Source: a virus (lineage: Duplodnaviria; Caudoviricetes). From it: 64,000 bases of DNA. Where the stretch lies: positions 1-64,000 of the IMG/VR virus record IMGVR_UViG_3300024255_001563; one strand, written 5' to 3'. The notes beneath the pieces are model-generated. The model was not told the origin of the DNA and did not search any database. It worked only from the letters and a program-made list of their open reading frames with translations. Of this stretch, positions 10,378 to 63,750 are shown piece after piece. Position numbers and translations under genes: made by a program. The stretch's first letter is position 1. Every line of letters starts with the position of its first letter.

Positions 10378-10386
10378 TTTTCTTCC

Positions 10387-11896: not shown

Positions 11897-11897
11897 A

Positions 11898-12557: not shown

Positions 12558-12591
12558 TCTACTTCTTCTTTCTTGTTACGGTGTCTAGTAT

Positions 12592-12675: not shown

Positions 12676-12677
12676 GT

Positions 12678-13597: not shown

Positions 13598-13611
13598 ATT
13601 ATTTCCTTTCT

Positions 13612-14118: not shown

Positions 14119-14121
14119 ATA

Positions 14122-46695: not shown

Positions 46696-47054
46696 GTGAT
46701 AATGTAGAAAAACATTCTTGGGGATTTGAAGCAGTATGGGCAAAAGCTGACGGCTATGGTGCTAAACATATGATGTTCCTACAAGCAGGAAGTAAAACCG
46801 ATATATTTTTTCAAAAAAAGACACATAAAACTTGGTTTGTTGCATCAGGAAATTTTTCTATAAAATGGATAGATACAAGTAATGGTAAAGTATTTGAATC
46901 GAAACTAGAAGAAGGATCTGTGTTTGAAGTTGAAACTTTAAAGCCAGTATGTTTAGAAGCACTTACAGATAATAGTTCAATTACCGAAGTTAATAACGGT
47001 ATATACGATAATGATAAATTTATTGTTTACCCTAGTAATAATGTAGGAATATAG
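46692..47054 (+). CDS. Cupin-fold protein lacking the metal-binding His residues
   Basis: VEKHSWG.E..W, K.HKTWFV.SG resemble the other cupins, but the HxH is absent. Confidence 0.55.
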   Translation: MSDNVEKHSWGFEAVWAKADGYGAKHMMFLQAGSKTDIFFQKKTHKTWFVASGNFSIKWIDTSNGKVFESKLEEGSVFEVETLKPVCLEALTDNSSITEVNNGIYDNDKFIVYPSNNVGI

Positions 47055-47315
47055 ATGTTACCTAAACTATCAGAATCACAATTCTTTAAAGACGAACTAA
47101 AATTGTTTGAAATTCATATGCAAGATCTATCAAACGACAAAAAAATCGAAGCACAAAAAAAGATTGCAAGTCTTTTAGAACTAGTAGAATATGTAGACAC
47201 AGGTCATACACAAAAAATTGGATCTAGAATAACTCCGTCATTAATGGATAATACTAGATCGCAAATTGTAGATCTTAGAAAACAAATAGCAAAAATTTGT
47301 AATATTAAGATATAG
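47055..47315 (+). CDS. Hypothetical helical protein
   Basis: 86-aa ORF directly after the cupin. Confidence 0.6.
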   Translation: MLPKLSESQFFKDELKLFEIHMQDLSNDKKIEAQKKIASLLELVEYVDTGHTQKIGSRITPSLMDNTRSQIVDLRKQIAKICNIKI

Positions 47316-50300
47316 TTATTGCGCCAAACATATTATTGTGGAATTCACATTGATAATAATATGTTCCTGTAGTTGTTGGTGTCCAGTATACTGATCCTAA
47401 AGTTGCACCTTGATTAGTTACACCTATGGCTTGATCGCCTGTACCTGTACCTTGAACAGTCTTGAGGTAGAAAGGATGTCCTGGTGCATTTACAGAGAAT
47501 TCAACGTAATCACCAACATTAAATGCTAGTGCAGGATCATTTCCGTTCACACTACCGTTTCTGTCACTACCGCTTAGAGTATAGTTTTGTGTATTATTAG
47601 CACTTACACTGATAACATAATCAGGTGCAACACTTGTATCTAGAATTGTTACATCTTCTGTTAAACTGCCAGTACTATTACCTAAACTATCTGTTGATGC
47701 AAGTGTAACAGTCATTGTTTCTGCACCTTCAGTTAATGAATCGTTTTCTAATGTAATAGTAAATGTGCCTGTGCCACTATTAATGTTAATTACACCGCCT
47801 AGTGTCGCCGCTGTAATATCATCTACGGTTACACCAGAGATAGAATACCCAACAGTTGTGCCGTCATCTACTCCGCTTGTAGATAGTGTATATGTAACAG
47901 TTGTTCCTTCTCCTACTTCGGTTGCATCAGCAGTTAATGAATCATATGTTATAGGAATCGATGTGTCTGCAATAACAATGTCAATACTATCTCGACCATT
48001 ATCTAATGATAGTGTCATAGTTTCTGGACCTTCTGTAGTAACATCGTTTGCAATGACAAATGCTATTGTATCTGTATTACTATTAACTGTAAAGTTGCCA
48101 GTAATACTACCACTACTCAAGTCACTTGCATCGATACCTGTTATTGTATATGCAATAGATGTGCCATTAGCTAGACTTGTAGTATCAAGTGTAATATTTA
48201 CTGTATCGCCTTCATCGACGGACACACTATTTGCACTTAGTTCATATGTTGGACCTAGACTTGTATCTAAAATTGTAATACTAATGTCATCTTCACTATT
48301 ATCTAGTGCTAGATTCATAACTTCAGATCCTTCTGTAGTAATATCTTGATCAAATGTGAAACTCAATGATGCAAAATTACTGCTAACAGTAAAGTTACCT
48401 GTTATAGATCCGCTTGATAAATCCGATGCATCTATACCTGTAATAGTATACGGAACAACCGTTCCGTTTGATACGTTTGTTGTGTTAAGTAAAATATTTA
48501 CACTATCGCCTTCATTAACAGTTGTTGAACCAGAGCTTAGTATATATGTAGGTGATCCTGTAATACTAGTATCATTAATTACAACACTTACATCTTCACC
48601 TAGTCCGTCTAATGTTAATGTTAATGATTCACTACCTTCTGTAGTAGCATCATCTGCAATATTTATTGCAAGTGTATCTGTATTTGAAGTTATAGTAAAC
48701 GATCCTGTTAGTGCTATATCTATATCAGATACATCAACACCTGTAATTGTGTATGGAATACTAGTAGCATCTGCTATATCTGTTGTTGTAAGAGTAATAA
48801 CAATCGAATCGCCTTCGTTTACATCTGGAACACTACTTGATAGACTATAGGTCGGCGGCGCTGTACTTGTATCTGCAATAACCACATTGTCTGATAAAGA
48901 AGTTGTTCCATTTCCGTTACTATCAGTTGCGTCTAATGTTATTATAAGAGTTTCAGCACCTTCTGTATCTAAGTCTTCTACAAGATCTATGCTTAATGTT
49001 GATGTATTACCTACAATTGTAAATATACCAGTTAAGCTTACTAAGTCTATATCATCTACCGATACCCCTGTAATTGTATATCCAACTGTTGTATCATCAG
49101 CAATTTGACTTGTATTAAGAGTAAACGTAATTGTATCGCCTTCATCTGCCGTTTCTACATCTGCTGCAAGACTTGTATATGTCGGAACAACAGGAGTTGT
49201 ACTAGTGTCTATAATAGTAACATCAACACTATCACCGCCATTGTTAAGTGCTAGTGTAATTGTTTCAGTGCCCTCTGTAGATAAGTCCTCTGCTAATGTA
49301 AAGCTAATATTAGAAGTATTATTTACAACTATAAAGCTTCCTGATATACTACCAGAAGTAAAATCATTAGCTGTTATTCCTGTACCTGTAATCGTATATT
49401 GAATTGGTGTTCCGTTTGGAATATTTGTAGTTGTTAGATCAACATTAAATGTTGCTCCTTCATTAACAGTTGTCGGAGAAGCTATAAGTGAATATGTAGG
49501 ATCTAGAGATGTATCATTAATAGTTATTGGATTTGATGTTACGCTAGTACCGTTTATGTTTAATGTTAATTCTTCAGCGCCTTCTGTAGTAGTATCTTCT
49601 GCAATTGCTAATTCAATAATTGATTTATTATTATATCCTGCATAAAAATTTCCATTTAAATCTACTGCGGTATCATTAACCTTTATAATAGAAAATATTG
49701 TATCAGGTCCTGAAGCAGACTCTTCCACTCCTAATCTATATGTATTTCCGTCTGTTGAAGTAAGTAATCCGTTTTCAGAAAAGGCAGAATCTGAATTATA
49801 ATCACCTACAATTGATGTATTCCAACGTAATCGATATCTATATCGTTGCCCGGGTGCAGAACTACCAGTTAATGTTCTAATTACTTCGTATGTATTACTA
49901 ACATACCTTTCTTGCCATTGATATAGATTACTAATATCTGAAGTTGTAATTCCCGAAAGTGTAAACGGAATGTCTGTTCCTTCGTCTATATTTACTGTTG
50001 TAAGAGTATATCTTACTGTGCCGCCTTCATCGATGCTAGTAACATTTTGAGATAGATAATATAGCGGAATAGTAGTAGAAAGCGATACAGTACCAGATAA
50101 CGATAAGGGTTGTTTTCCGTATTTCGAAAACATCATTCTATTAGGACTGCCCATTAATGATGTTTCGTATGCTGTATAATCTGAATCTAATCCTGTAGAA
50201 TATAATACATCTTTACTTTCAGCTACTAATTTGTTTTTTATTTGTAACGGAGTTGCATTAGGATCTACTTGTAAATGAAGTGCAATTAACCCAGCAACTT

Positions 50301-51642
50301 GAGGAGCTGCCATGCTTGTGCCGCCGATGTTTGCAATTTTATAACCCGGAGTAAAATAATCTCCTGCACTTGAACCAAATACATTAGTATCACTACAAGC
50401 ACTTATTATATCAGTTCCTGGGGCCCAGAAATTTGTACCAGGCCCTTTATTACTACTGCCTGCTGTTTTATCTCTAAATACTACACCATCTTGTTGTGTA
50501 GTACTATCTACATTACCTACAATAAATGCTTCTTCGCTATATGGACTAGATCCTTGATGATATTGAGTATTAAGTCCACTAAAAGTCACTTCGTTGTTGT
50601 AATCAAGGCCTGTAGGCACATCTATTTTATAATATTGATTTCCCGATGCAATACAAACATGTATTCCTGCATCAATCATGTCTTCAACCTCTGCATCAAT
50701 TTGCGCTAGTCTTACTGGAATTCTTCTACTTGTACCGCTGGGGCCAGTTAGTTGAGGAACTATACCATACGTTTGCCATAACTGATTTTGTGTTTCACCA
50801 AGATAAGACCATGGTGTTCCTCGATATGTCCCTCCAGTCGGGTCAGTAGTAGTAATTGTTCTACCGTATCCCCAACTCATATTTACTACTGTAGGACGTC
50901 CGTTAGTTTTTGCTAAATGCCATAATCGAATCACATCAAAGCAGTCAGTTGTGCTTATGCCTCCATTTGGATCCGAAGGCCCTTCTAATCCCGAAACTTT
51001 TACTGCATATATGTTTGCATTTTTAGCCCAGCCATATGTTTTACCTGCTGTAATTCCTGCGCAATGTGTTCCGTGGCCGTGATAATCAATATAATGTCCT
51101 GCAGGCATTGTGCCAGGTAATCCACTTTCGCTATACCAATCAATTTCTATAAATCTACTAGCACCTTGCATGTTTTGCCATTCTGGATGATCGGCACTAG
51201 TACCTGTATCTTGTATTACTACATCAACATCAGTTCCGTCTAGCCCATAAGGATAAAATCCATCCGGTGCAGTAGTTCCAGCAGAATACGAATTTGTATC
51301 ATCAATACACCTTCTAAGACCCCAGTTTGCTTTTGTATTATCTACTGCTGAAGTTTTATCAAAGTTAAATCCTTGTGTAAGATGAAGCATTTTATCTATA
51401 CCGTCTTGTTGATCTATAGGTACTTCCACTGCTTCTACTCTTGGATCATTTTTTAATCTTTCGGCTTCTTCGTCACTTAATAGCCAGTTAGTCATTCTCT
51501 TAGAGCCTGGTCTAGAATTCACAACGTCTACTGATCTTTCAGGTATAAATTCGCTTCCGGTTGAGCTAGATAATTCTGTATCTAATTCTTCTAAATTATT
51601 ATTTCTTTTTACAACTACTACATATTCTTTTTCGGTGCTCAT
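47305..51642 (-). CDS. Subtilisin (S8) protease with seven Ig/Calx-beta-like repeats and a C-terminal cupredoxin-like domain
   Basis: Catalytic triad IQDTG / HGTHCAG / GGTSMAAP; N-terminal prodomain; about 100-aa repeats; ends H-P-F-Y...YYYQCEFHNNM. Confidence 0.9.
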   Translation of the reverse strand: MSTEKEYVVVVKRNNNLEELDTELSSSTGSEFIPERSVDVVNSRPGSKRMTNWLLSDEEAERLKNDPRVEAVEVPIDQQDGIDKMLHLTQGFNFDKTSAVDNTKANWGLRRCIDDTNSYSAGTTAPDGFYPYGLDGTDVDVVIQDTGTSADHPEWQNMQGASRFIEIDWYSESGLPGTMPAGHYIDYHGHGTHCAGITAGKTYGWAKNANIYAVKVSGLEGPSDPNGGISTTDCFDVIRLWHLAKTNGRPTVVNMSWGYGRTITTTDPTGGTYRGTPWSYLGETQNQLWQTYGIVPQLTGPSGTSRRIPVRLAQIDAEVEDMIDAGIHVCIASGNQYYKIDVPTGLDYNNEVTFSGLNTQYHQGSSPYSEEAFIVGNVDSTTQQDGVVFRDKTAGSSNKGPGTNFWAPGTDIISACSDTNVFGSSAGDYFTPGYKIANIGGTSMAAPQVAGLIALHLQVDPNATPLQIKNKLVAESKDVLYSTGLDSDYTAYETSLMGSPNRMMFSKYGKQPLSLSGTVSLSTTIPLYYLSQNVTSIDEGGTVRYTLTTVNIDEGTDIPFTLSGITTSDISNLYQWQERYVSNTYEVIRTLTGSSAPGQRYRYRLRWNTSIVGDYNSDSAFSENGLLTSTDGNTYRLGVEESASGPDTIFSIIKVNDTAVDLNGNFYAGYNNKSIIELAIAEDTTTEGAEELTLNINGTSVTSNPITINDTSLDPTYSLIASPTTVNEGATFNVDLTTTNIPNGTPIQYTITGTGITANDFTSGSISGSFIVVNNTSNISFTLAEDLSTEGTETITLALNNGGDSVDVTIIDTSTTPVVPTYTSLAADVETADEGDTITFTLNTSQIADDTTVGYTITGVSVDDIDLVSLTGIFTIVGNTSTLSIDLVEDLDTEGAETLIITLDATDSNGNGTTSLSDNVVIADTSTAPPTYSLSSSVPDVNEGDSIVITLTTTDIADATSIPYTITGVDVSDIDIALTGSFTITSNTDTLAINIADDATTEGSESLTLTLDGLGEDVSVVINDTSITGSPTYILSSGSTTVNEGDSVNILLNTTNVSNGTVVPYTITGIDASDLSSGSITGNFTVSSNFASLSFTFDQDITTEGSEVMNLALDNSEDDISITILDTSLGPTYELSANSVSVDEGDTVNITLDTTSLANGTSIAYTITGIDASDLSSGSITGNFTVNSNTDTIAFVIANDVTTEGPETMTLSLDNGRDSIDIVIADTSIPITYDSLTADATEVGEGTTVTYTLSTSGVDDGTTVGYSISGVTVDDITAATLGGVININSGTGTFTITLENDSLTEGAETMTVTLASTDSLGNSTGSLTEDVTILDTSVAPDYVISVSANNTQNYTLSGSDRNGSVNGNDPALAFNVGDYVEFSVNAPGHPFYLKTVQGTGTGDQAIGVTNQGATLGSVYWTPTTTGTYYYQCEFHNNMFGAITIS
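47635..50065 (-). repeat. Seven tandem ~100-aa repeats (V.EG.T....L.T......T...YTITG....D......G.F..........D..TEG.E)
   Basis: Repeats read directly in the translation; the first is interrupted by an insertion. Confidence 0.85.
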
Positions 51643-52823
51643 GTTATGCTTCCTGTATCTAATTCGACCCAGCTTCCGTTTTGATATGCTTCTATTTTAT
51701 TAGAAGTTGTATTATATATCATATCTCCATTTACTGAAATTAAACCATCTCTATCTGTATCACTAAAACTAGGCAATCTTAAAGGGCCGCCTGTAATAGA
51801 TACACCGTCGCCTGTACTTATTGTTAATCTTGCTGCTGTTTCTAATTCAGCATTTCCTATTCCTGTATTTTTTAATGAGCTTGTTTCTATTGTATTTGCA
51901 ATAAGATCTCCGAGTATTAAATCTGACCCGGATTGTATGCTAGGAGGATCTACAAAGGTTACTACTCCGCTACCGTTGGTTTGTAAAAATTGTCCAGTAT
52001 CACCGTCTGTTATTCCTAAATCAAAAAATTCAGTTGGCTTTGGTCTTACAAACGATCCGCTTGACTCTACATAAACATATAACAATTCGTCATCGCTATC
52101 AAACCATAAAGTGCCATTTGTAGCTTCAGATGGTTGAGACGGACTAACTGTAATATTTGCGCCGCTATCATCGTCGCCACCGCTGCCTGTTCCTGGCATA
52201 CTCACAGTTATAGTATTTCCCATAAGTGTATGATTTTGACACCAATAATAAAGTGTTTCAGGAGTTGAGGTTGTTACTGTAATTTGTACTTGTCTTGTTT
52301 TAGATCTTTGAAAATCTCTCCAATATTCTGCTTGTGTTACTTCTTCACCGTTTAGAATATATATTACATTTTCTAAATACGATGTGCCACCGCCGAGTTC
52401 ACCACTGGCGTTGTCTGAACTAAAATTTAACGGGTGTTGATTATTTGCGCCGCCTTCAGCATTTGGAAAATATACATTTGTTTGATCTGTTTGATCAAAA
52501 ACATAAGTGTAACCTACTACCATTGATATTGCTGGTTTATACTCTCCGTTTAGCACATACTTGTTACCGGAATCACCACCTTGTGGACCTGTAATAGTTA
52601 CATTATACTTTACAGTTGCTATCTCTTTTGCAGCAATATTTCTAGGTAACGCTTCGTCAGTGAGTACTTCAAATCCGCCTCGGTTTATAGTTCTGCCACT
52701 ATAAACTCTTAAAGTATTTGTTTCTTTACTAAAAAATACCTCACCGCTAGAACCTGTAGCTCTATCTAAAAATTCTTTTGCTCTAGGAATTATCCTTATA
52801 CGATCAACAATAGGTGATGCCAT
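51639..52823 (-). CDS. Virion/tail-associated protein with a cupredoxin-like domain and fibre modules
   Basis: HPLNFS...LYYWCQNHTLMG; G.LWFDS...LYVY module; C-terminal GDMIYNTT..KIEAY..GSW; ATAAATA at 52847-52853. Confidence 0.7.
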   Translation of the reverse strand: MASPIVDRIRIIPRAKEFLDRATGSSGEVFFSKETNTLRVYSGRTINRGGFEVLTDEALPRNIAAKEIATVKYNVTITGPQGGDSGNKYVLNGEYKPAISMVVGYTYVFDQTDQTNVYFPNAEGGANNQHPLNFSSDNASGELGGGTSYLENVIYILNGEEVTQAEYWRDFQRSKTRQVQITVTTSTPETLYYWCQNHTLMGNTITVSMPGTGSGGDDDSGANITVSPSQPSEATNGTLWFDSDDELLYVYVESSGSFVRPKPTEFFDLGITDGDTGQFLQTNGSGVVTFVDPPSIQSGSDLILGDLIANTIETSSLKNTGIGNAELETAARLTISTGDGVSITGGPLRLPSFSDTDRDGLISVNGDMIYNTTSNKIEAYQNGSWVELDTGSIT

Positions 52824-52860: not shown

Positions 52861-54390
52861 TTAATCTAGTTGTCCTGTATATTCCCATAATATATTTTCT
52901 TGTTTAATAGTTTCTGTAAACTGATCAAATCTATAATTAGCACGATATATTCTTTCTACTCTATCATGTAATTCTTTAAGTTCTTGCTGTGCTTGATTTA
53001 TACTAAAATCGTTTAGATATTTCGAACAAACTTCAGGTGAAAGTTGACCAGTTTGTATTAATATATAGCTCCACAATTGCCATCCTGCTGCTCCAGGATA
53101 TGACGGAAAATCATAAAGTGTTGGCATTTTAGTTTTACACATTTCTCGAATCATTTTTGAAAATTCTGTTTCAATTGCACCGCTTGTAATGTATTTCCAA
53201 AATTCACTATCTGTACGCCCGCCCATATAATGCGCTACAAGAAAATCTTTAAAATCGTCAAACATTTTGTTTACTCTTTTATTGTATGCTTTAATACATG
53301 CAGGATTTAAAGTTGTTTCTAAATCATCTTTTAAGTATTCAAATGCAAAGTATTTAAGTTGTACAATTGCACCATGAATTGAAGTTGCTTCTAAAGGTTC
53401 TGCAAAAGTACTACTAAGCCCAATGGTTAAACAATTCTTAACCCATGTATTTTCTAGTCTTCCAGTATCAAAAGTAAATGGATCTCTTAATGGTTCAATT
53501 TTTCTACCAAGAGTTTTCTCAATTTCATTTAACGCTTCGTCGTCACTTATAAAATCACTACAATATGTATAGCCGCAGCCTTTCCTTGTTTGTATAGAAG
53601 CTTGCCACATCCAGCCAGCTGATAGCGCCTGAGCTTCTGTATAAGGATCTGGTTTTGTAGTGTCGTCGTACTGTAAGAAGAAAGGTATAGCTCTGTCAAC
53701 AGGTAAATTTTCTTTATAACAAATCCACTTTGTTCCTAATTTATTAGCTAGTATTCGTCTAAATCCTGAACAATCTATATAAAAATCAGAGTCTATAATT
53801 GTCTCATTATCTAATATCAGCTTGTCTATTCTTCCCTTTTCGTCTTGTGTTACTTCATTTATTATTGCATCAATTAATTCAACATTTTCGTAACGTGTGC
53901 AAACTTTTTGTAAGTAATCAGCTACTAGTCTTGCATCAAAATGCCATGCATGTGTCTGTTCTTCGTAAGTTCCTGTTCTTTTAAGTATAGGTGATGTTCT
54001 AGCTTCCATCAAACACCCAAAATATGTACCTCTATGTAAATTTTGTTTATCGTTTACTGCTAAGAATGAAGTTACACTATCAAGTAAATTCAAAGCAGTT
54101 GGAGTTCCGTCTATCGGCGCAAAGTAATTATAATCCTTTACCCAATCTTTATGCAATATGCCATACTTAGGCATTGCGGCTGTCTTTCTTATAAAATCTA
54201 ATGGATCAATACCAAAGTCACCGTAAGTTCCTAATATAAAATCCATTAGTTCTCCAGTTACTCCTTCACCGGCTCCGAGTATTCCGATTTTACTTGACGC
54301 AACTATTTTAATTTTTGCATTTGAATTATGTGCTAAAAATAAAGCCGATATCCATCCTGCTGTTCCACCGCCGACTACTGTAATTTCCAT
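52861..54390 (-). CDS. Flavin-dependent (tryptophan-halogenase-like) enzyme 1
   Basis: VVGGGTAGW, GAGEG, PKYGI (catalytic Lys position), HFDA, IDCSGF, WMWQAS, FAEPLEATSI. Confidence 0.88.
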   Translation of the reverse strand: MEITVVGGGTAGWISALFLAHNSNAKIKIVASSKIGILGAGEGVTGELMDFILGTYGDFGIDPLDFIRKTAAMPKYGILHKDWVKDYNYFAPIDGTPTALNLLDSVTSFLAVNDKQNLHRGTYFGCLMEARTSPILKRTGTYEEQTHAWHFDARLVADYLQKVCTRYENVELIDAIINEVTQDEKGRIDKLILDNETIIDSDFYIDCSGFRRILANKLGTKWICYKENLPVDRAIPFFLQYDDTTKPDPYTEAQALSAGWMWQASIQTRKGCGYTYCSDFISDDEALNEIEKTLGRKIEPLRDPFTFDTGRLENTWVKNCLTIGLSSTFAEPLEATSIHGAIVQLKYFAFEYLKDDLETTLNPACIKAYNKRVNKMFDDFKDFLVAHYMGGRTDSEFWKYITSGAIETEFSKMIREMCKTKMPTLYDFPSYPGAAGWQLWSYILIQTGQLSPEVCSKYLNDFSINQAQQELKELHDRVERIYRANYRFDQFTETIKQENILWEYTGQLD

Positions 54391-54403
54391 AAATTATCCT
54401 TTA

Positions 54404-54453
54404 TATAAATATGTATCTAAAAAATTAACTGGGTACTTTATTTATGGTAAATA
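54404..54453. promoter_or_regulatory. Late-type promoters driving the halogenase/oxygenase island in both directions
   Basis: TATAAATA on + (54404-54411), ATAAATA on - (54439-54445), GTAAATA on + (54447-54453). Confidence 0.6.
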
Positions 54454-54470
54454 CTCTGCAAGGAGTTCAT

Positions 54471-55070
54471 ATGGAATTAAATTTTGAATATCTTTTTTCA
54501 ACATATCTATCTACTTTAAAAAATCTTAATATCGACAATGATTCTTTAGAAGAGTATGCATACTTGCAAAGAGAAAAAGATAACGGTGTAGAAAAAAGTA
54601 ATTGGAAGGGCTGGCAAAGCGATACTTTAGAAGAACAAAATTCTGAAGTTGAAAAGCTATGTTCTATAATAGAAGACGCATGTAATGAATTAAAAAATAA
54701 CTTAGGATTTAAAAAACACTTAATTCCAAAAATAAACAATATATGGCTCAATATTAATTCTAACGGATCTTTTAATCGTCCACATTTACATCCTGGTAGT
54801 ATATTTTCTGGAACGTATTATATAAAAAAATCAGCAGAGGATGGAAATATAGTATTTACTACACCTTGTGTACAGCAACAATATCATATAGAAAAAGAGT
54901 TAATAGACCAATTTAATCCTACAACATCAAGTGTATATAGTATTCCCACAGACCCGGGTACAATGATACTATTTCCGTCATGGGCAGAGCATTTTGTTGA
55001 ACCCAACAACACAGATGTAGATAGAATTTCTATTGCGTTTAACGTAGCATTATTAGAGGATAACACATGA
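54471..55070 (+). CDS. 2OG-Fe(II) oxygenase (TIGR02466-like, HxH)
   Basis: IWLNIN..G.FNRPHLHPGSIFSGTYY, ILFPSWAEHFV, RISIAFN; start MELNF at 54471. Confidence 0.88.
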   Translation: MELNFEYLFSTYLSTLKNLNIDNDSLEEYAYLQREKDNGVEKSNWKGWQSDTLEEQNSEVEKLCSIIEDACNELKNNLGFKKHLIPKINNIWLNINSNGSFNRPHLHPGSIFSGTYYIKKSAEDGNIVFTTPCVQQQYHIEKELIDQFNPTTSSVYSIPTDPGTMILFPSWAEHFVEPNNTDVDRISIAFNVALLEDNT

Positions 55071-56548
55071 AAAATTTAGTGATCGCAGGCGGCGGCTCTG
55101 CGGGCTGGTTAACAGCACTTTTTGTAAAACAACTTTTTCCAGATCATAATGTAACGTTAGTACAAAGTAGCGAAATAGGAACTATCGGCGTCGGTGAAGC
55201 AACTACTCCTCATCTACCAAATTTTCTTGATAGTTTAAAAATACATCCTGTAGATATAATACCGCATATTAAAGGCAGTATAAAAAATGGTATCAGTTTT
55301 GAGAATTGGAATGGCGATAATAAAAAATATATGCATGCATTTCATGATAAAATTATAGATTTTCAAATTCCTAATATATTTGATCGTAACTGTACTGATT
55401 ATCATCATAGAGAAATAATTTCAAAAAAATTATCTATGAAAGAATATCTTTATCAACAAAAAATAGCATATGAAAATAAAGTAGATATCGAAAATGTAAA
55501 TTGGGCATTGCACTTTGATGCAAAAGAGTTTGCTAATTATTTGCAAAAAATAGCAATAGATAGAAATATAAAATTAATAGATGATGAAATAGTAGGGTTT
55601 GAAAATGATGAAAAAAACTTTATTACAAAAGTAATACTAAAAAATAATAGAAGTGTAAGCTGTGATTTTATATTCGATTGTACTGGATTTAGAAGAGAAA
55701 TAATAGGAAAGTTTTACAAAGAAAAATGGAAGAGTTATAGATCTTACATGCCTATGAAAAAAGGCATTCCATTTTGGCTAGAATCAAAAGAAAGTTTGCC
55801 ATCATATACTTCTAGTATTGCATTGAAAAATGGATGGAGTTGGCAAATACCGCTGCCTCATAGAACTGGTAGTGGTTATATTTTTGATTCTGATTACATA
55901 AGTGTAGACGAAGCACTAAATGAAGCAGAAGAATTCTATAAACAAAAACTGGAAGTAAGAAAAGTAATAGATTTTGATCCTGGAAGATTTGAAAATCTTT
56001 GGATTAAAAACTGCATTGCTGTTGGATTATCAGGCAGTTTTTTAGAACCTTTAGAATCAACCTCTATTTGGCAAACTATTGATCAATTAGAAACGTTAAA
56101 ACATTTCTTAAACGTCCTTACAAAAGACGAAAATGATTCAAGAAGTTTGTATAATGAAATGATGAATAACAGTATTGATCATAAAAGTTATTTTATATAT
56201 CTTCATTATTACACGAAAAGATCAGATAGTGATTTTTGGAAAGAATTTAAAGAAAAAAATCCTATGCCAGAAGAACTAAAAAATCTTTATAATTCTCTAA
56301 AAGATGGAAGCTTTAGATATTTCGATATGTTAAATCACAAAACTCCAGGAACATTTGCAGTATCAAGTTTTACACAAGTAGGATACGGGCTTAATATGAT
56401 TGACAATCTAGATAATTCAGTATATAATAAAATTCAACCTTCTGTAGAAGAATATAAAAATATAATTAATTATCATAATGATATGATTGCGATAGACCAT
56501 AGACATTTTTTAGAAAGACAATATGAAAATATTAGGAATAAATTTTAA
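55067..56548 (+). CDS. Flavin-dependent (tryptophan-halogenase-like) enzyme 2
   Basis: IAGGGSAGW, IGVGEAT, SIKNGISF, HFDA, FDCTGF, GWSWQIP, FLEPLESTSI. Confidence 0.9.
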   Translation: MKNLVIAGGGSAGWLTALFVKQLFPDHNVTLVQSSEIGTIGVGEATTPHLPNFLDSLKIHPVDIIPHIKGSIKNGISFENWNGDNKKYMHAFHDKIIDFQIPNIFDRNCTDYHHREIISKKLSMKEYLYQQKIAYENKVDIENVNWALHFDAKEFANYLQKIAIDRNIKLIDDEIVGFENDEKNFITKVILKNNRSVSCDFIFDCTGFRREIIGKFYKEKWKSYRSYMPMKKGIPFWLESKESLPSYTSSIALKNGWSWQIPLPHRTGSGYIFDSDYISVDEALNEAEEFYKQKLEVRKVIDFDPGRFENLWIKNCIAVGLSGSFLEPLESTSIWQTIDQLETLKHFLNVLTKDENDSRSLYNEMMNNSIDHKSYFIYLHYYTKRSDSDFWKEFKEKNPMPEELKNLYNSLKDGSFRYFDMLNHKTPGTFAVSSFTQVGYGLNMIDNLDNSVYNKIQPSVEEYKNIINYHNDMIAIDHRHFLERQYENIRNKF

Positions 56549-58235
56549 TTCACATTGTTCTGCTTGTCTAATAGTAGATAATGAATTAATATATTTTAAT
56601 CAAGAAGAAAGACTATCTAGATTAAAAAACGATAGCGGTATTCCTTATCTTTGTCTAGAAGAAATAAAAAAAATAGAAACAAAAATAGATTTATTACTTG
56701 TAACAGGTTATAATTATAATATTAATAATGGTTTTTATTTGTTAAACTTTCTTAATAAAAGCGGTTTTAATATAGAAGGGTGGTACGGTTATTATAAATC
56801 ACACCATTTAGTTCATGCTGCAAAGGCTGTAAACGATAGCGGATTCGATGATGCTCTTGTGTTTGTACAAGATGGAAAAGGATCATCGTATATGCTATCA
56901 AACGGTTATGAAAGTATAGAAACTACTAGTATATTTGAGTATTCAAAAGATAAAGGCTTTTCTTGTGTTTATAAAAATTTGTTTTCTCACTATCATACAG
57001 CAAGAAATTTAGAAGTTGGAACAGATATATTTCCTATTATAGATCACGAATATGAAAAGGCTTATGCGTTTCCAACAGATCGCCTGTATGAAGATACAAA
57101 ATTTAACATTTCTAATCACTTCGATTTAGGATTATTATATACTATAACAGGACAGTGTTGCGGATTTACTGATGATGGCGGCAAATTAATGGGACTTCAA
57201 AGTTACGGAACTAACGACAGCGAATTACCAGATGTACTCTTTGATGATTATAAAATTAACATGGACAGTTTTATACTAGATCAGTCTAATATATATAATA
57301 ACGAATTTAACTATAAAAAATATCCATATCTAGCAATAGAACAAAAGAAGAAAAACTTTGCCTATAAAGTACAAAAATCTTTTGAAGAGAAACAACATAA
57401 TTTAATATCAAAATATCTAAAGGAAACAGGAAAAAAGAATTTAGTAATGTCTGGAGGAACTGCATTAAATGTAGTAGGAAATGGTAAACTGTTATCTAAA
57501 TTAGACTCTGATATTAATATTTTTATTGAACCTGTATGCGGCGATGAAGGTAATAGTATAGGAATTTGCAATCTGTATCTATTAGAAGACAACATAAAGA
57601 CATCTTTCAGTATTTACAATTGTGGGACAGATCCCGAATACAATTATAATTTACTTGATTTTGAATCTGAAAAAAAAGTTACTGATCAAGATATTGCTGA
57701 ACTTATTGCCAAAGGCGCAATTGTATCGTATTTCCACGGAAAGGGAGAAGCTGGTCCTAGAGCATTAGGAAATAGAAGTTTATTATTTAATCCTAGTATA
57801 ATAGATGGTAAAGATATAGTTAATCAAGTAAAAGGAAGAGAAAGCTTTAGACCGTTTGCATGTAGTATACTTGAAGAACATGCAAAAAACTGGTTTGACT
57901 TTAAAGGTCAAAATTCTTCCCCTTATATGATGTTTGCCCTTGAGTGCAATAAAGATGTAGAAAAAATAATTCCTAGTGTAATACACGTTGATGGAACTTG
58001 TAGAGTACAAACTGTAAATATAGAACAAAATAAAAATTATTATAATTTAATTAACGAGTTTTATAAAATTACAAATATTCCTTTACTTTTTAATACATCA
58101 TTTAATCTAGCAGGCGATCCTATTGTGCATACAGTACAAGACGCATTAGAATCTATAAGAAATAGTAAAATAGAATATTTATATCTACCCGAAATTAACA
58201 CCTTAATACATAGTGAGAACCTTTATGAAAACTAA
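56523..58235 (+). CDS. O-carbamoyltransferase (NodU/CmcH family), copy 2
   Basis: QEERLSRLKND, HHLVHA, GKLMGL..YG, SGGTALN, GDEGNSIG, RALGNRSL, FRPFA, HVDGTCRVQTV, NTSFN. Confidence 0.92.
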   Translation: MKILGINFNSHCSACLIVDNELIYFNQEERLSRLKNDSGIPYLCLEEIKKIETKIDLLLVTGYNYNINNGFYLLNFLNKSGFNIEGWYGYYKSHHLVHAAKAVNDSGFDDALVFVQDGKGSSYMLSNGYESIETTSIFEYSKDKGFSCVYKNLFSHYHTARNLEVGTDIFPIIDHEYEKAYAFPTDRLYEDTKFNISNHFDLGLLYTITGQCCGFTDDGGKLMGLQSYGTNDSELPDVLFDDYKINMDSFILDQSNIYNNEFNYKKYPYLAIEQKKKNFAYKVQKSFEEKQHNLISKYLKETGKKNLVMSGGTALNVVGNGKLLSKLDSDINIFIEPVCGDEGNSIGICNLYLLEDNIKTSFSIYNCGTDPEYNYNLLDFESEKKVTDQDIAELIAKGAIVSYFHGKGEAGPRALGNRSLLFNPSIIDGKDIVNQVKGRESFRPFACSILEEHAKNWFDFKGQNSSPYMMFALECNKDVEKIIPSVIHVDGTCRVQTVNIEQNKNYYNLINEFYKITNIPLLFNTSFNLAGDPIVHTVQDALESIRNSKIEYLYLPEINTLIHSENLYEN

Positions 58236-58842
58236 TTATATTATAATTGACGATTTTTACGATAATCCCTGGGAAATAAGACAACGTGCTTTAGAATTAG
58301 AATATAAAAAACTAGAAGGTTCTACATATCCTGGTTTAAATTCTTTAGGATTTTTATACAATGATGAAATGCATAAAAATATTGAAGGCATCTTAAATAC
58401 AAAATTAGAAAATCCAAGAGACATGCAAGCTGGATATTTTCGTATTTCTCACGAAGATGCAGATGCTGCACAAGATATACATATAGATCCCGACTTTGAC
58501 TATGGAGGTGTATTGTTTTTAAATCCGCCTAATCAATGTACAAACGATGCTGGTACTAGTTTTTATACACACAAAATATTAGGAATCGACAAAGGTCCAA
58601 AAAATTTAGAAGAAGTTAAACAACTAGGATTTCCAGGTTATGAAAATTTTGTAAACGAAATGATTTATGGCGATTGTCTTGATAGGTCAAAATGGGAACG
58701 ATATTGCAGAATACCTTACAAATTTAATAGACTGGTATTATTTGATAGCCATTTATGGCATAGTCATGGAGTTAATTTTGGAAATAATTTACAAAATTCT
58801 AGATTAGTACAATTATTTTTTTATAAAAGGTTAAAAAAGTAA
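58225..58842 (+). CDS. 2OG-Fe(II) oxygenase-like (DUF6445-like)
   Basis: IIDDFYDNP..IR..AL, YPG, IHID, GGVLFL, YKFNRLVLFDSHLWH, RLVQLFF. Confidence 0.8.
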   Translation: MKTNYIIIDDFYDNPWEIRQRALELEYKKLEGSTYPGLNSLGFLYNDEMHKNIEGILNTKLENPRDMQAGYFRISHEDADAAQDIHIDPDFDYGGVLFLNPPNQCTNDAGTSFYTHKILGIDKGPKNLEEVKQLGFPGYENFVNEMIYGDCLDRSKWERYCRIPYKFNRLVLFDSHLWHSHGVNFGNNLQNSRLVQLFFYKRLKK

Positions 58843-58843
58843 A

Positions 58844-59410
58844 TTAGTATACCCATGAAACATAACTATATCTAGTTCCTTTTGTTACTGGTTCTACTTT
58901 GTGAGGATACATAAAGTTACTAGGAAAAATTAAAACGGCGCCTGGAGGAATATCTATTACCGTATCCCACATAACAAACTCGCCACCTTCGTAATCATTA
59001 TTTAACCCGCCTACTATACTTAAAATTGGTATTCCGTTTATACCAGGCCCAAAAAGATCATGTATATGATCACAATGTAACTTCATTTTTTTCTTTTCAC
59101 TATACCGATTAAATCTTAACGGACTGTATCCACGCCACCCTGCAAACCATTTATGATCTAAATCATTAATAATATAATTTTCTAAGGCTTTGTAAAGATT
59201 ATCTTGTATTGTTTGTTTTTCTTTTATATCACTCCAAGACATTTGTAAATCATCTACAAACGTAACTCTTTCTTGTGTTGTATTATTATTAAAATAATGA
59301 TCTTCCCATAGCTCATCATTTTTCAAACTTTTTACTGTATTATTACAAGTATCTTCATCAATAATATTTTCATAAACTTTTATATATTTGTCAATTGTAT
59401 TGTTAATCAT
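58844..59410 (-). CDS. Prolyl-4-hydroxylase-like 2OG-Fe(II) oxygenase
   Basis: FNRY...MKLHCD, LNNDYEGGEF, LIFPSNFMYPHKVEPVTKGTRYS. Confidence 0.88.
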   Translation of the reverse strand: MINNTIDKYIKVYENIIDEDTCNNTVKSLKNDELWEDHYFNNNTTQERVTFVDDLQMSWSDIKEKQTIQDNLYKALENYIINDLDHKWFAGWRGYSPLRFNRYSEKKKMKLHCDHIHDLFGPGINGIPILSIVGGLNNDYEGGEFVMWDTVIDIPPGAVLIFPSNFMYPHKVEPVTKGTRYSYVSWVY

Positions 59411-60024
59411 ACGTTTAGCTCCGATAAAAAGAATTCGCTTCCGATTGAACCTTTTATAAATGTATTAAATGATAAACTCATTCTAGATTCCCTTTCTTGA
59501 TCTTCTTGCACAATATCTACATAATGTAAAAGACTGCTCGGAAATAATACTAACATTCCTGTGCTTACAGGATAATACCAGGTGCTAGCATTATGAATAT
59601 TATAAGTAACAGGTTCAATTTCTAGAGGATTAAAAATGCCTTTATCAAACCATATACTATCTGTATTTGGATTTGCACTAATATAATATACTCCACTTAC
59701 GAGACTGTTGGTATGAGCATGTTTATGATGCATTTCTCCTGGAAAAGTTTTATTACACCACGACTGTGTTATATGTAAAGATACCTGGTTATTAGGTTGA
59801 TAAACTTCCTTAAAATAAAACTGAACATGCTTGTCAATTTCATTACGCAAAGTAGAAAGTTCTTTTCTTTCTAGAAGGTATGAATCTACTGATCTATGAT
59901 TAAACTTATTTTGTTGAAAATCTTGAGATTTTATAAAATTAAATTCGTCTTGATGTGGTATGTAGTCTAACCCTGTTGTATAAACAGGTGTTGGAAATAA
60001 ATTATGTATGTTTGTATCTGCCAT
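59407..60024 (-). CDS. 2OG-Fe(II) oxygenase (TIGR02466-like, HxH)
   Basis: LFPTPVY, TQSWCN...GEMHHKHAH.NS.VSGVYY, LFPSSLLH.V, RMSLSFN. Confidence 0.88.
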   Translation of the reverse strand: MADTNIHNLFPTPVYTTGLDYIPHQDEFNFIKSQDFQQNKFNHRSVDSYLLERKELSTLRNEIDKHVQFYFKEVYQPNNQVSLHITQSWCNKTFPGEMHHKHAHTNSLVSGVYYISANPNTDSIWFDKGIFNPLEIEPVTYNIHNASTWYYPVSTGMLVLFPSSLLHYVDIVQEDQERESRMSLSFNTFIKGSIGSEFFLSELNV

Positions 60025-60063
60025 AAAATTATTTAGTTATATATGTATATTATAAATACTTTT

Positions 60064-60576
60064 ATGAATGTAATTGATAATTTTTTAGACAAAAAAGAAT
60101 TCCAACAAATACAAGATATTTGTTTAGGGGCAAACTTTCCGTGGTTCTGTAATAGTAATATTGTTCGTCCTGAAAATAAAGATGAATTTCTTAATTTTTA
60201 TAATTATCAATTTACGCACACTTTATATCGAGATTATTCCCCTTGTAGTAACTATTTCAATGATATTTGCGATCCTTTATTTTTCAAGATTAATCCTGCA
60301 TCAATTATGAGAGTAAAAGCAAATCTTATACCGAGAGCAGATAAAAATGTAATACACGAGTATCATGAAGACATTACAAATTTTAAAGGAAAGACTGCTA
60401 TCTACTATGTAAACACTAATGATGGTAAGACATATTTTAAAGACCATCAATCTGTCGAGGCTGTAGAAAATAGATTAGTAATATTTGATAGTAATCTATT
60501 ACATACAGGCAGTACGTGTACAGATCAGCGCACTCGAGTTGTTTTAAATTTAAATTATTTCGAATGGAATAATTAA
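60064..60576 (+). CDS. 2OG-Fe(II) oxygenase-like protein
   Basis: VIDNFL, RVKANL, YHED, AIYYVNTNDG.T.F, NRLVIFD..LLHTG, RVVLNLN; start MNVID at 60064. Confidence 0.8.
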   Translation: MNVIDNFLDKKEFQQIQDICLGANFPWFCNSNIVRPENKDEFLNFYNYQFTHTLYRDYSPCSNYFNDICDPLFFKINPASIMRVKANLIPRADKNVIHEYHEDITNFKGKTAIYYVNTNDGKTYFKDHQSVEAVENRLVIFDSNLLHTGSTCTDQRTRVVLNLNYFEWNN

Positions 60577-61224
60577 TTAAACAAATCTAGGTCCTCTTAC
60601 CCAAATAACTATTGATTTTCGAACACCTTTTGTTACAGGTGCAACTCTATGCATTACAAAAGACGGAAATAAGATACATTGTCCTTTTGCACAAGGTACT
60701 ATGTCATTCTTTGGATCTGAAGTTCTTCCCATCATAAACTCGCCACCTTCAAAATCGACACCGGGTTCGTTTAATAATAATGTTAATGATAATTTACGTT
60801 GATGAGGATCTAGTTGCTGTTGACCTGTTTCTAAATCAATATGCCAGTCATATGTGCCGTTATCTTCAGCATGATATTCTGTATATTGAAATGCTTCGTA
60901 TCCATTTAAATCAAAGTTATAAAAATCTTCATTTACAGCTTCGATTATACTATTTAATCTTTGGAATATAAAATTATTATCTTCGTTCGGAAACTGCCAT
61001 CCAAGTTTAGATCTTCTAACGTCTTCTAATTTTCTTCCGTCCTGTTTAGCTGGATCATTATCTCTGTTTCCAACTTTTCCATCTTCAAGCTTTTGTGATG
61101 ACATTAATACTTGAATTTTTTCTAATTCTTCGTTAGAAAAAGACTCCATCCAATAACAGTACGGAGAAAAATATTGTGATCGTTGTATGGGGTTGTTTAT
61201 TAGTCTTTTAAATCTGCCAGACAT
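60577..61224 (-). CDS. PKHD-type 2OG-Fe(II) hydroxylase
   Basis: RRSK, QYTEY...YDWHID, RKLSLTLLL, FEGGEF, FPSFVMHRVAPVTKGVRKS.V.W..GP. Confidence 0.9.
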   Translation of the reverse strand: MSGRFKRLINNPIQRSQYFSPYCYWMESFSNEELEKIQVLMSSQKLEDGKVGNRDNDPAKQDGRKLEDVRRSKLGWQFPNEDNNFIFQRLNSIIEAVNEDFYNFDLNGYEAFQYTEYHAEDNGTYDWHIDLETGQQQLDPHQRKLSLTLLLNEPGVDFEGGEFMMGRTSDPKNDIVPCAKGQCILFPSFVMHRVAPVTKGVRKSIVIWVRGPRFV

Positions 61225-61310: not shown

Positions 61311-61871
61311 TTATAGTTCAGCTTGACCTTCAGGATCAGCTAAAGGTGTAAATGCTTGCCATTCGCCTGTACTATCATTCCATGCAAACTTTTCATCTCC
61401 TGATTCAGCTGATGCCGGCACAGGTTGTGTAATATCTGTTTGAACTGCATGCGGAGTTATAATACTATCGTGGCTTACCCAGTTAGTAGATATTTCGTCC
61501 CATAAATGATCGTTGCCATCTGTAGGATATGCTACAGGAGGAACATGCACACCGAGAGCATCATCAAACACCCACGAAGGAAACCCGCCATCGGCTCTCC
61601 AGTTAGCTTTTAAAGTATTCTTTTTATCTACTACTTCAGCATCTGTCATTTCTCTTAGAACCCAGTCATCTGATGCACTAGTACGATCAGCACTTACACT
61701 ATAAGCATGATCGTTGGTTTGATACACTCCTTCAACTGGTCTTTCAGTTCTAGTAAAAGGAACAAATGTTTTACCTTCTTTAAAGCTATCTGGTGCCGCA
61801 TCTAAGTTACTTTTTTCTATAGGATGATTTACAGCATTACCGTGTTCGTCTATTTCAATATATAATTCCAT
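61311..61871 (-). CDS. Tail-associated hypothetical protein
   Basis: GFPSWVFDD...PPVAYPTDG..WDE pattern typical of fibre-accessory proteins; downstream of the fibre genes. Confidence 0.6.
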   Translation of the reverse strand: MELYIEIDEHGNAVNHPIEKSNLDAAPDSFKEGKTFVPFTRTERPVEGVYQTNDHAYSVSADRTSASDDWVLREMTDAEVVDKKNTLKANWRADGGFPSWVFDDALGVHVPPVAYPTDGNDHLWDEISTNWVSHDSIITPHAVQTDITQPVPASAESGDEKFAWNDSTGEWQAFTPLADPEGQAEL

Positions 61872-62886: not shown

Positions 62887-63750
62887 TTAATTTCTTCCTT
62901 TTAATGTTTCAACTTCAGCAGTAAGTTCTTTTACTGCTTCGATAAGATATGCAGTCAATTTAGTATATGTAATCCCATCTGCGGTTTTATCATCGTTGTA
63001 TTTAACCACATTAGGAAGTATTTTAGCTACTTCTTCCGCAATCAAGCCAGGTTCTTCTGTTGCACTGCCGTCTAATCTATCGTATGTTACACCTACTAAT
63101 CTCTTAATTGAGTTTAGAGCGCCTTCGATAGGTCTTACATTTTCTTTATACGTTATACTTGATGTTTCAGTAATACTTGTAAATCGTCCTGAACTTGGAG
63201 TTGATGATCCAACTGTAGTACCGTCAATTGCTCCGCCATTGATATCAACACTAGAACTTAATAAATTACCGCTAAATCTTGTTGCACTAATTGTGCCGTT
63301 ACTTGGCGTAAAACTAAATTTACTATTACTGGTTGTAACTGCTGTAATAATTCCGCTTGTTGATGTAATTAAAGTTGGGTAATAAGTAGTTCCACTTGTT
63401 GTGTTATTACTTACTGATACGTTAGCAGCAGCCCAACTTAATGTTCCGCTACCGTTTGTTTTTAAAAAATATCCGTCAGTGACGCCGCTTGCAGGTAGTG
63501 TATAAGTTATATTCGAACCAACTGTTCCAGGTACAGCAAGTGCAACATAATTTGAACTATCTGAATCTGTTAGTCTTAGTTGACTGTTTGATTGTAACGA
63601 AACATGTGCATTAGATCGAACATCACCTGTACCATTTGGTTCGAAAATAATATCATCGTTTGGCTCGATGGTTTGTAGTCTATTATTTTGAGCCGTAAAT
63701 GTACCTAAAACCGGTCCACCTTGGATACTTGTACTAATTCTTCTTGGCAT
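62887..63750 (-). CDS. Tail fibre protein with a C-terminal intramolecular chaperone (peptidase S74) domain
   Basis: SSITYKENV....AL..I..L.GV.Y...GLIAEEV...P..V...Y..L.A.LIEAVKEL. Confidence 0.85.
   Translation of the reverse strand: MPRRISTSIQGGPVLGTFTAQNNRLQTIEPNDDIIFEPNGTGDVRSNAHVSLQSNSQLRLTDSDSSNYVALAVPGTVGSNITYTLPASGVTDGYFLKTNGSGTLSWAAANVSVSNNTTSGTTYYPTLITSTSGIITAVTTSNSKFSFTPSNGTISATRFSGNLLSSSVDINGGAIDGTTVGSSTPSSGRFTSITETSSITYKENVRPIEGALNSIKRLVGVTYDRLDGSATEEPGLIAEEVAKILPNVVKYNDDKTADGITYTKLTAYLIEAVKELTAEVETLKGRN

Follow-up and report, generated by a model that had tools for sequence, protein, structure and literature searches.

Conserved island of halogenase, oxygenase, and carbamoyltransferase genes with late-type promoters beside a glycine-rich tail-fibre gene of a marine jumbo phage

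An array of ten dioxygenases and two halogenases was reported in the phage Syn9 in 2010 (Iyer, Abhiman, de Souza, and Aravind, Nucleic Acids Research, PMC2938197; genome, Weigele 2007), and a region of accessory enzymes amid the tail-fibre genes of the structural module, the host recognition cluster, was described in pelagimyophages and cyanomyophages in 2020 (Zaragoza-Solas et al., PMC7029224). Sporadic prnA, carbamoyltransferase, and 2-oxoglutarate (2OG) genes had been catalogued earlier in cyanomyoviruses. Here we describe an island at positions 52861 to 61224 of the first 64 kb (the window) of IMG/VR virus record IMGVR_UViG_3300024255_001563, a 200,843-bp contig with a CheckV completeness of ~57%. 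The island encodes two halogenases, six oxygenases, and one carbamoyltransferase (CT), and this kind of array is already known from the two reports of 2010 and 2020. What is new is that CT is a recurrent, co-oriented partner of halogenases, that the order of the island is conserved over deep divergence in a jumbo-phage lineage, that a halogenase cassette has been cleanly swapped between near-identical phages, and that a Gly_rich_2 fibre gene lies within 2 kb of such arrays in ~10 phage architectures, including those of Syn9, HTVC008M, and a P2-like phage. Literature searches returned no earlier report of an integrated carbamoyltransferase, deep synteny in a jumbo lineage, late-promoter anatomy, halogenase cassette exchange, or the Gly_rich_2 association. 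We tentatively read the island as a late enzyme cassette that is tied to the neighboring Gly-rich fibre and whose most likely role is to tailor that fibre or a virion-surface component made together with it.

The contig comes from an uncultured marine jumbo phage, and matching DNA is present in many marine metagenomes. Because its neck protein is nearest to those of PA5oct, Phosso, and Rak2-like jumbo phages and psbA was not found in the contig, the phage is not a cyanophage. The island consists of nine intact, tightly packed open reading frames (ORFs), which a preliminary description of the window had named as two halogenases, six oxygenases, and a NodU-type carbamoyltransferase; Pfam and PHROG matches confirmed this content and divided the oxygenases among PF13640, PF13759, and the DUF6445 type, with two members each. 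HAL1 and HAL2 are the sole halogenases, and OX3 and OX6 the sole PF13640 genes, in 200 kb. Motif and alignment checks showed that catalytic residues are retained in all nine genes, start/stop overlaps run through OX1-HAL2-CT-OX2, and all nine enzymes are acidic, with isoelectric points of 4.7 to 6.2. The same description had called the block AT-rich and placed it within the tail-fibre module. Its GC content of 0.301, against 0.357 for the contig, is the minimum among all 8.4-kb windows of the contig, and fibre-type genes lie on both flanks. A flavin reductase had not been seen, and PF01613 was likewise not found in the 200 kb of this ~57% complete contig.

The island resembles Syn9 gp40-gp54, in which two tandem Trp-halogenase-type genes and many small 2OG dioxygenases lie behind tail-fibre genes that include the Gly_rich_2 members gp38 and gp39. 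Families common to Syn9 gp45-54 and the island are phrog_1644 (the OX2 type), phrog_274 (the OX5 type), and phrog_3531 (the OX3/OX6 type). Syn9, however, is a Kyanoviridae cyanophage whose array lacks a carbamoyltransferase, contains a JmjC/MINA-type member, and runs entirely on one strand, whereas the island belongs to a PA5oct/Rak2-like jumbo lineage, integrates CT, is arranged in divergent late units, lacks a JmjC member, and has a halogenase at most ~33% identical. No JmjC or Cupin_8 match was obtained at an E value of ≤0.01 among the nine island proteins, and megablast of the island against cultured phages gave no match. Like the host recognition cluster, the island is an accessory-enzyme region among the tail-fibre genes of the structural module. 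That cluster, in contrast, is nonsyntenic and dominated by glycosyltransferase and radical SAM genes, and its report does not mention halogenases or carbamoyltransferases (PMC7029224), while the island is syntenic over deep divergence.

The order and orientations HAL1 / OX1-HAL2-CT / OX3 / OX5 / OX6, followed by orf186, the Gly-rich gene, and a fibre gene with a Peptidase_S74 (S74) domain, are kept in the relatives L119, L077, and L085. OX2 is 67% identical in L119, the proteins of L077 and L085 are 40 to 55% identical, and across relatives the gene order is conserved from 99% down to ~45% protein identity. Single genes vary: L119 lacks OX4, no OX2 was detected in L077 or L085, and L085 carries a third halogenase. 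The proposed link between the island and the fibre genes also holds in relatives, in which the orf186/Gly-rich/S74-fibre trio adjoins the island with homologues from 99% to 32% identical; the trio flanks it in L010, L119, and L085.

Two close relatives, L010 and L011, share 96 to 100% DNA identity across the island with two exceptions, the HAL2 ORF and a 502-bp insertion. The insertion, at 58835 between OX2 and OX3 (L010 6401-6907), encodes a seventh oxygenase of the phrog_274 type that is 36% identical to OX5. At HAL2 (55067 to 56548, plus strand; 493 amino acids [aa]; Pfam Trp_halogenase, 2e-106), DNA identity to L010 falls to ~70% precisely across the ORF (63% in protein), and the replacement, window 55100-56590 against L010 2629-4074, is gene-sized and clean. 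A metagenome contig from another sample passes from OX1 into an alternative HAL2 allele at 55117. HAL2 is thus a variable cassette exchanged between near-identical phages, which fits a gene involved in host interaction.

HAL2 carries the halogenase motifs GGGSAG, the Lys in SIKNGISF, WSWQIP, and FLEPLEST, aligned to PyrH and PrnA (PrnA K79 and E346); RebH is of the same type. It shares its Pfam family and catalytic motifs with another viral enzyme, VirX1 of cyanophage Syn10 (PDB 6QGM; 2e-55 over residues 3-404), but is only ~30% identical to it, and its C-terminal part aligns solely with the Xcc4156/2PYX type of proteobacterial halogenases. The flavin-dependent paralogue HAL1 (52861 to 54390, minus strand; 509 aa; Trp_halogenase, 3.7e-90) has GGGTAG (GxGxxG), the catalytic Lys K75, and the Glu of FAEPLEAT in the same columns as PrnA-type enzymes. 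In a tree, HAL1, HAL2, and the third halogenase of L085 fall in separate clades, and that of HAL1 is conserved in L075/L077/L085/L119. A scan of genome contigs with HAL2 yielded no bacterial context: of two contigs labelled as metagenome-assembled genomes (MAGs), the annotated one (L115) is a T4-like phage contig and the second agrees with viral contig L103 in length and gene order. L115 had been binned into a Porticoccaceae MAG although it is a T4-like phage; at 5564-15856 it holds a HAL2-type halogenase between gp15 and terS, in the core late operon of a pelagimyophage-like genome. In HTVC008M (L074, 8421-11995), a HAL2-type halogenase lies between terS and terL. Action of the halogenases on 7-deazaguanine bases was considered and dropped, as no TGT or QueC Pfam match was present in the contig.

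The preliminary description had also pointed to TAAATA motifs in the block as late promoters. The sites exist, but the bare hexamer occurs 240 times in 200 kb and is uninformative by itself. The form ATAAATA, in contrast, has 26 of its 49 copies in the intergenic 3.4% of the contig (15-fold enriched; P = 1.4e-25), and 25 of those 26 face a start codon no more than 110 nt away; TATAAATA is depleted in the window (3 copies versus 13.4 expected). Genes behind ATAAATA encode the neck adaptor, a tail-tube-like protein, baseplate hub and wedge proteins, a 2341-aa fibre, and virion structural proteins, and the motif also precedes gp32 and a few enzymes. In T4-like cyanophages, NATAAATA is the late promoter (PMC2984593). 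The features of a T4-type late unit are present here, namely, an (N)ATAAATA −10-like element near the start with no −35 element, together with a gp55-type late sigma factor gene (phrog_12791, 1e-78).

Within the island, the 53-nt divergent spacer between HAL1 and OX1 holds back-to-back late-type promoters (TATAAATA at 54404-54411 on the plus strand and ATAAATA at 54439-54445 on the minus strand), as well as a bare TAAATA at 54448 (plus strand). HAL1 is the leading gene of the resulting minus-strand late unit, which continues into a 394-aa fibre-like gene of the same transcription direction and toward a 1445-aa gene. A CTAAATA at 60030-60036 (minus strand) stands 5 nt upstream of the OX4 start, and ATAAATA at 60052 to 60058 (plus strand; TATAAATA at 60051) stands 5 nt upstream of the OX5 ATG at 60064, which suggests a leaderless or near-leaderless OX5 mRNA. 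The same spacing of 4 to 6 nt ahead of a start codon that has no Shine-Dalgarno sequence was seen in the window at 31431 (minus), 41517 (plus), and 60052 (plus) and in the contig at 94859, 169120, and 173572 (all minus), and points to leaderless or near-leaderless late mRNAs. The bidirectional (N)TAAATA pair is retained in L085 and L075/L077 despite divergence of the remainder of the spacer, and the OX5 arrangement reads ATAAATA-N5-ATG in L085/L084 and GTAAATA-N5-ATG in L077, at 45 to 50% protein identity; island late motifs persist in relatives with proteins 40 to 55% identical while the surrounding spacer has diverged. The motif statistics, the gp55-type sigma gene, and the conservation of the sites in distant relatives, all at the level of sequence, support late-type promoters, and the island is probably expressed late in infection. 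One run (X20), labelled a metatranscriptome but probably DNA, gave small contigs over parts of OX1, CT, OX2, OX4, OX5, and OX6 and cannot show expression, its timing, or where transcripts begin. A perfect sigma-70 consensus (TTGACA-17-TATAAT) lies at 56400 to 56428 (plus strand) within the HAL2 3′ end, 95 nt upstream of the CT start. L010, L011, L077, and L085 do not share it, and a strain-specific early input before CT is possible; genome-wide, 9 of 16 TTGACA-N16-18-TAnAAT sites are intergenic.

CT (56523 to 58235, plus strand; 570 aa) is a TobZ/NodU/CmcH-family O-carbamoyltransferase with a Kae1-like Carbam_trans_N domain (1.7e-22, 80.8 bits) and a YrdC-like Carbam_trans_C domain (6.9e-59, 198.6 bits). 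It shares this two-domain structure and the metal motifs with TobZ, NovN, GdmN, NodU, and the phage carbamoyltransferase that acts on 5-hydroxymethylcytosine (5hmC) (PMC8670742): PDB matches to 7XB6, NovN, TobZ, and GdmN were at 1e-37 to 1e-44, and the HHxxH and DG motifs read SHHLVHA and QDGKG in alignment to 7XB6. Unlike the 5hmC enzyme, CT has halogenases and oxygenases as neighbors, and the thymidylate-synthase-like partner of the DNA-modifying clade is absent in 200 kb. CT and its phage homologues share no more than 38% identity.

Among 35 HAL2-type loci, 11 have a CT within 8 kb of the halogenase; the two genes are co-oriented every time, and at least four arrangements occur. Because the halogenase was the query that retrieved these loci, the sampling is biased, and of 64 loci selected by CT, a halogenase is present in only 5. 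The halogenase-linked CTs are spread over 4 separate clades of the CT tree, and very divergent CTs (28 to 44% identity) each adjoin HAL2-type genes. Most HAL2-type genes have a small oxygenase, of varying family, directly before or after them, and the pair PF13640+PF13759 recurs in T4-like and P2-like phages. The coupled pathway proposed in the preliminary description is partly supported: co-oriented sets of CT, a HAL2-type halogenase, and a small oxygenase recur in at least four architectures, yet CT and halogenase are 30 to 90 kb apart in cultured cyanophages (P-SSM2, P-SSM5, and S-RIM44). On balance, we lean slightly toward one substrate shared by the halogenase, the oxygenases, and the carbamoyltransferase. 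In a CT locus without a halogenase (L016 12767-15727, minus strand), three tandem glycine-rich ORFs of ~255 aa lie within 1 kb of CT; one of the three was scanned and gave a Gly_rich_2 match.

The Gly_rich_2 protein of this phage (61884 to 62885, minus strand; 333 aa; PF21722) is encoded by the sole PF21722 gene in 200 kb and contains 30% Gly, 6.9% Pro, 5.7% Tyr, and 3.3% Trp. Its model (mean predicted local distance difference test score [pLDDT], 78.5) best matched a cyanophage Pam3 fibre, Bxb1 tail-tip proteins, and the ALK glycine-rich domain, by which it is predicted to be a genuine fibre component. The Trp contents of orf186 (3.8%) and of the Gly-rich protein place both in the top 5 to 8% of genome ORFs, which is not significant alone. 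Among the ~10 architectures in which a Gly_rich_2 gene lies within 2 kb of an oxygenase/halogenase/carbamoyltransferase array, it stands beside the array in L078, L086, L087, and L098; in L102, the gene ends 20 bp ahead of CT, and in L096 the match scored 23.3 bits, just below the Pfam cutoff of 24.3. Syn9 gp38/gp39 lie directly before gp40-54 and are the sole Gly_rich_2 loci of that genome, and HTVC008M has its sole copy, gp065, 1.1 kb ahead of a 2OG array. We also ran the test in reverse with 9 Gly_rich_2 proteins chosen solely for lying on long contigs, and 3 of the 9, one of them in a P2-like phage, had PF13640, PF13759, and/or a halogenase within 2 kb. As queries against viral contigs, the Gly-rich protein and orf186 reached solely near-identical relatives, tblastn matches of the Gly-rich protein in cultured phages were limited to an N-terminal motif of ~50 residues, and a custom Gly-rich hidden Markov model was too narrow and left the L078, Syn9, and HTVC008M copies undetected.

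Viral Fe/2OG enzymes are known to act on Gly/Pro-rich virion-associated proteins, as in the collagen lysyl hydroxylase/glucosyltransferase L230 of mimivirus and the prolyl 4-hydroxylase of PBCV-1. Those are eukaryotic giant viruses with collagen-type repeats, whereas the candidate substrate here is of the polyglycine-like Gly_rich_2 type and halogenation and carbamoylation would be additional chemistry. In fibre tailoring, the Fe/2OG enzymes would hydroxylate Pro, Lys, Asp/Asn, or aromatic side chains in Pro/Trp/Tyr-bearing loops of the fibre; CT, as a TobZ-type enzyme, would form carbamoyl-AMP from carbamoyl phosphate and ATP and then O-carbamoylate one such hydroxyl; the two halogenases, with reduced flavin adenine dinucleotide (FADH2) from a host reductase, would halogenate Trp or Tyr; and the HAL2 cassette swap would alter adhesin chemistry among otherwise identical phages. 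That the shared substrate is the fibre or the virion surface is our tentative assignment; the full version, in which Gly_rich_2 adhesins are hydroxylated, halogenated, and O-carbamoylated by phage enzymes and HAL2 exchange tunes adhesin chemistry and host range, is a doubtful extension of it. We favor fibre tailoring over a mere cargo site because the association spans very different architectures, because the fibre gene has the same orientation as CT, halogenase, and oxygenase, because Iyer et al. independently predicted Gly-rich and tail-collar proteins to be hydroxylase substrates in bacteria (PMC2938197), and because a phage 2OG oxygenase was detected in the virion proteome of cyanophage S-SCSM2R (PMC12801897).

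Several observations weigh against fibre tailoring. In the reverse test, 2 of the 9 loci (L125 and L130) carry ho1+pebS in the slot behind Gly_rich_2 and the chaperone, and in 4 of the 9 (L126-L129) the slot is empty. L124 and L126 are sister P2-like marine myophages, of which L124 has a PF13759+PF13640 pair between the fibre chaperone and the sheath gene and L126 has none, and the fibre thus does not need the enzymes. Genomes of the HTVC008M and L115 type have their halogenase among neck/terminase genes, away from the Gly-rich gene, and the wide separation of CT and halogenase in cultured cyanophages points the same way. HAL1 reads WMWQAS at the WxWxIP position, the late timing is read from motifs, and this strain has the perfect sigma-70 site ahead of CT. 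Known TobZ-family enzymes have small molecules or nucleic acid as substrates, and known Trp-halogenase-family enzymes mostly use free aromatics. Finally, no accessory family is commoner in marine myophages than the 2OG oxygenases, and the slot behind Gly_rich_2 and the chaperone may serve as a general hotspot for cargo where a late operon ends; as a cargo site, it would naturally be dominated by that family, and adjacency to the fibre gene would recur for that reason.

These points lead to the alternatives. Were the slot permissive, the island could be unrelated cargo, independent enzymes of the moron or auxiliary-metabolic-gene type gathered at the end of a late fibre operon, each with its own target. 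The ho1+pebS pair shows that the slot accepts unrelated genes, as does the host recognition cluster (PMC7029224); no stretch of the contig is lower in GC than the island, as would fit a foreign origin, its content varies among relatives (OX4, OX2, the extra OX5-type gene, and the third halogenase), and CT and halogenase are unlinked in cultured cyanophages. We nevertheless consider this explanation unlikely: independent cargo would not be expected to keep a core order with divergent orientations down to ~45% identity, to overlap in starts and stops along OX1-HAL2-CT-OX2, to include CTs of 28 to 44% identity that each stand beside HAL2-type genes, or to travel as a PF13640+PF13759 pair in T4-like and P2-like phages. 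We give a comparably low rating to small-molecule tailoring, in which the enzymes would act on a host metabolite or make a halogenated, hydroxylated, and carbamoylated metabolite freed at lysis, with the fibre adjacency incidental. Hydroxylation, carbamoylation, and halogenation are the tailoring logic of natural products such as cephamycin, novobiocin/clorobiocin, and ansamitocin, and the co-oriented recurrence of CT, OX, and HAL genes suits it as well. The characterized relatives of CT (TobZ, NovN, GdmN, and 7XB6) all carbamoylate small molecules, Trp-halogenase-family enzymes including viral VirX1, whose natural substrate is unknown, halogenate free aromatics, and Iyer et al. proposed such a role for the Syn9 array (PMC2938197). 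Yet no scaffold-building enzyme (nonribosomal peptide synthetase, polyketide synthase, precursor of a ribosomally synthesized and posttranslationally modified peptide, or prenyltransferase) was found in or near the island, late timing leaves little time for a metabolite to aid infection, and the Gly_rich_2 gene beside the arrays in ~10 architectures is left unexplained.

Sugars or DNA are poorer candidates as substrates. NodU/NolO/TobZ-type enzymes carbamoylate sugar hydroxyls, and CT could do so on a phage glycan or on host lipopolysaccharide (LPS) or capsule; sugars are not known substrates of flavin halogenases, however, and no glycosyltransferase or sugar-nucleotide gene was found in or beside the island, which makes glycan or envelope tailoring improbable even though host recognition clusters are rich in LPS-type genes (PMC7029224). 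For DNA or nucleotide hypermodification (5hmC carbamoylation, TET-like oxidation, or base halogenation), the precedent is a phage carbamoyltransferase that makes 5-carbamoyloxymethylcytosine and is encoded together with MazG-type genes and those for a thymidylate-synthase-like hydroxymethylase and a dCMP deaminase (Yang et al. 2021, PMC8670742), and a halogenase adjoins terminase genes in pelagimyophage-like genomes. The island contains none of those partners, no ThyA/ThyX homologue (PF00303, PF02511) was found in 200 kb of the ~57% complete contig, and no island protein had a Tet_JBP match above threshold. With the thymidylate-synthase-like partner absent and all nine enzymes acidic, DNA modification is the least likely explanation, and we regard it as very improbable.

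The six oxygenases belong to at least three families. OX1 (54471 to 55070, plus strand; longest ORF from 54444; PF13759, 5e-22) probably starts at 54471, which is preceded by AAGGAG, and its PDB relatives 2RG4 and 3BVC are both uncharacterized. OX4 (59407 to 60024, minus strand; 205 aa; PF13759, 3.5e-18) has, like OX1, the HxH...H metal residues of the PF13759 variant, the three His being invariant in the alignment. OX2 (58213 to 58842, plus strand; 209 aa) is a DUF6445-type Fe/2OG oxygenase (7.6e-13) whose family comprises at least 80 DUF6445 proteins, with H90, D92, H183, and R197 invariant among 34 homologues. Its AlphaFold (AF2) model (pLDDT, 92), the only one of the six covered by the fold test, is a double-stranded beta-helix that matched OGFOD1, BesD-type hydroxylases, PHD2, P4H, and Tpa1 with template modeling (TM) scores of ~0.5. 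A DUF6445 homologue on a 258-kb contig had no halogenase or CT nearby. OX3 (58844 to 59410, minus strand; 188 aa) is a PF13640 (P4H/PiuC-like) Fe/2OG oxygenase (4.6e-12) with a PDB match to PiuC (1.8e-5) and a weak match to the LH3 lysyl hydroxylase (E value of ~0.01); H112, D114, and H170 are invariant in the alignment, and R180 is conserved in at least 90%. It overlaps OX4 by 4 nt, and a complex prediction for the two scored 0.00, which is evidence neither way. OX5 (60064 to 60576, plus strand; alternative start, 60043; 170 to 177 aa) is a phrog_274-type Fe/2OG oxygenase (5e-52) with weak DUF6445/PF13640 matches besides, HxD...H...R conserved in 15 homologues, and virus-only Atlas clusters labelled "2OG-Fe(II) oxygenase." OX6 (60577 to 61224, minus strand; 215 aa; PF13640, 1.8e-14) matched PiuC at 2e-6 and has HID...H...R; it is the final gene of the minus-strand fibre operon, and the 86-nt gap between it and orf186 has no perfect late motif. 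Literature searches gave nothing usable on PiuC function, on cyanophage time courses of such genes, or on phage fibre hydroxylation.

Island proteins of the 2OG-oxygenase-like kind match phrog_274, phrog_1644, and phrog_3531, which are labelled "DNA endonuclease V," "minor coat protein," and "ferrochelatase." All three families carry HxD...H...R motifs, and the labels look wrong, the families appearing from sequence to be 2OG-oxygenase-like. RefSeq phage entries such as Syn9 gp46 and gp51-54 have inherited the doubtful labels. To the left of the structural genes, at 45609-47315 (plus strand), lie a Nudix hydrolase, a further PF13759 oxygenase, a cupin (phrog_7851, "cysteine dioxygenase"), and an 86-aa ORF; in L077 and L085, a Nudix gene directly abuts HAL1.

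Between the island and the Gly-rich fibre gene lies orf186 (61311 to 61871, minus strand), a small acidic Trp-rich protein that has no Pfam match and is conserved beside the island in L010, L085, and L119. Because the ORF at the corresponding position has a Phage_tail_APC match in L123, L127, and L130, orf186 may be the analogue of a tail-fibre assembly chaperone. The cyanophage-like loci L125 (8289-9551) and L130 (8289-9489) have the heme oxygenase and a PebS-type bilin reductase after Gly_rich_2 and a small ORF in this chaperone position, which is Phage_tail_APC in L130 and has no Pfam match in L125. Beyond the Gly-rich gene is a tail-fibre gene (62887 to 63750, minus strand) with a C-terminal Peptidase_S74 intramolecular chaperone domain (1.1e-9) and matches to many PHROG tail-fibre families. 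On the other flank, the 394-aa fibre/baseplate-like gene (51639 to 52823, minus strand) matches PHROG baseplate wedge and tail-fibre families and has its own late motif at 52847 (minus strand). Next to it, at 47305-51642 (minus strand), is a subtilase-domain structural protein of 1445 aa with Peptidase_S8, Reeler, and Calx-beta-like segments and PHROG baseplate hub/lysozyme matches, a candidate for an unusual virion-associated protease.

The numerous 2OG-Fe(II) oxygenase genes of marine T4-like phages, and their frequent "tryptophan halogenase" and carbamoyltransferase genes, have been regarded as auxiliary metabolic genes for nearly 20 years, with no known substrate. The Gly_rich_2 fibre protein that adjoins the arrays in this phage, Syn9, HTVC008M, and a P2-like phage is offered as a candidate, and the question is directly testable because cultured carriers exist (Syn9, Syn10, and HTVC008M). 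The database labels of phrog_274, phrog_1644, and phrog_3531 can be corrected to 2OG-oxygenase-like. If the fibre reading is wrong, the slot behind the distal fibre and chaperone genes would still be a preferred site for late-expressed cargo. If it is true, the island would provide the first halogenated or carbamoylated virion protein, the halogenases would be protein-modifying enzymes of biotechnological interest, and the unexplained 2OG-oxygenase and "tryptophan halogenase" genes of marine phages would acquire a general function; phages would then alter the chemistry of their receptor-binding fibres, and host range would be controlled at a further, new level.

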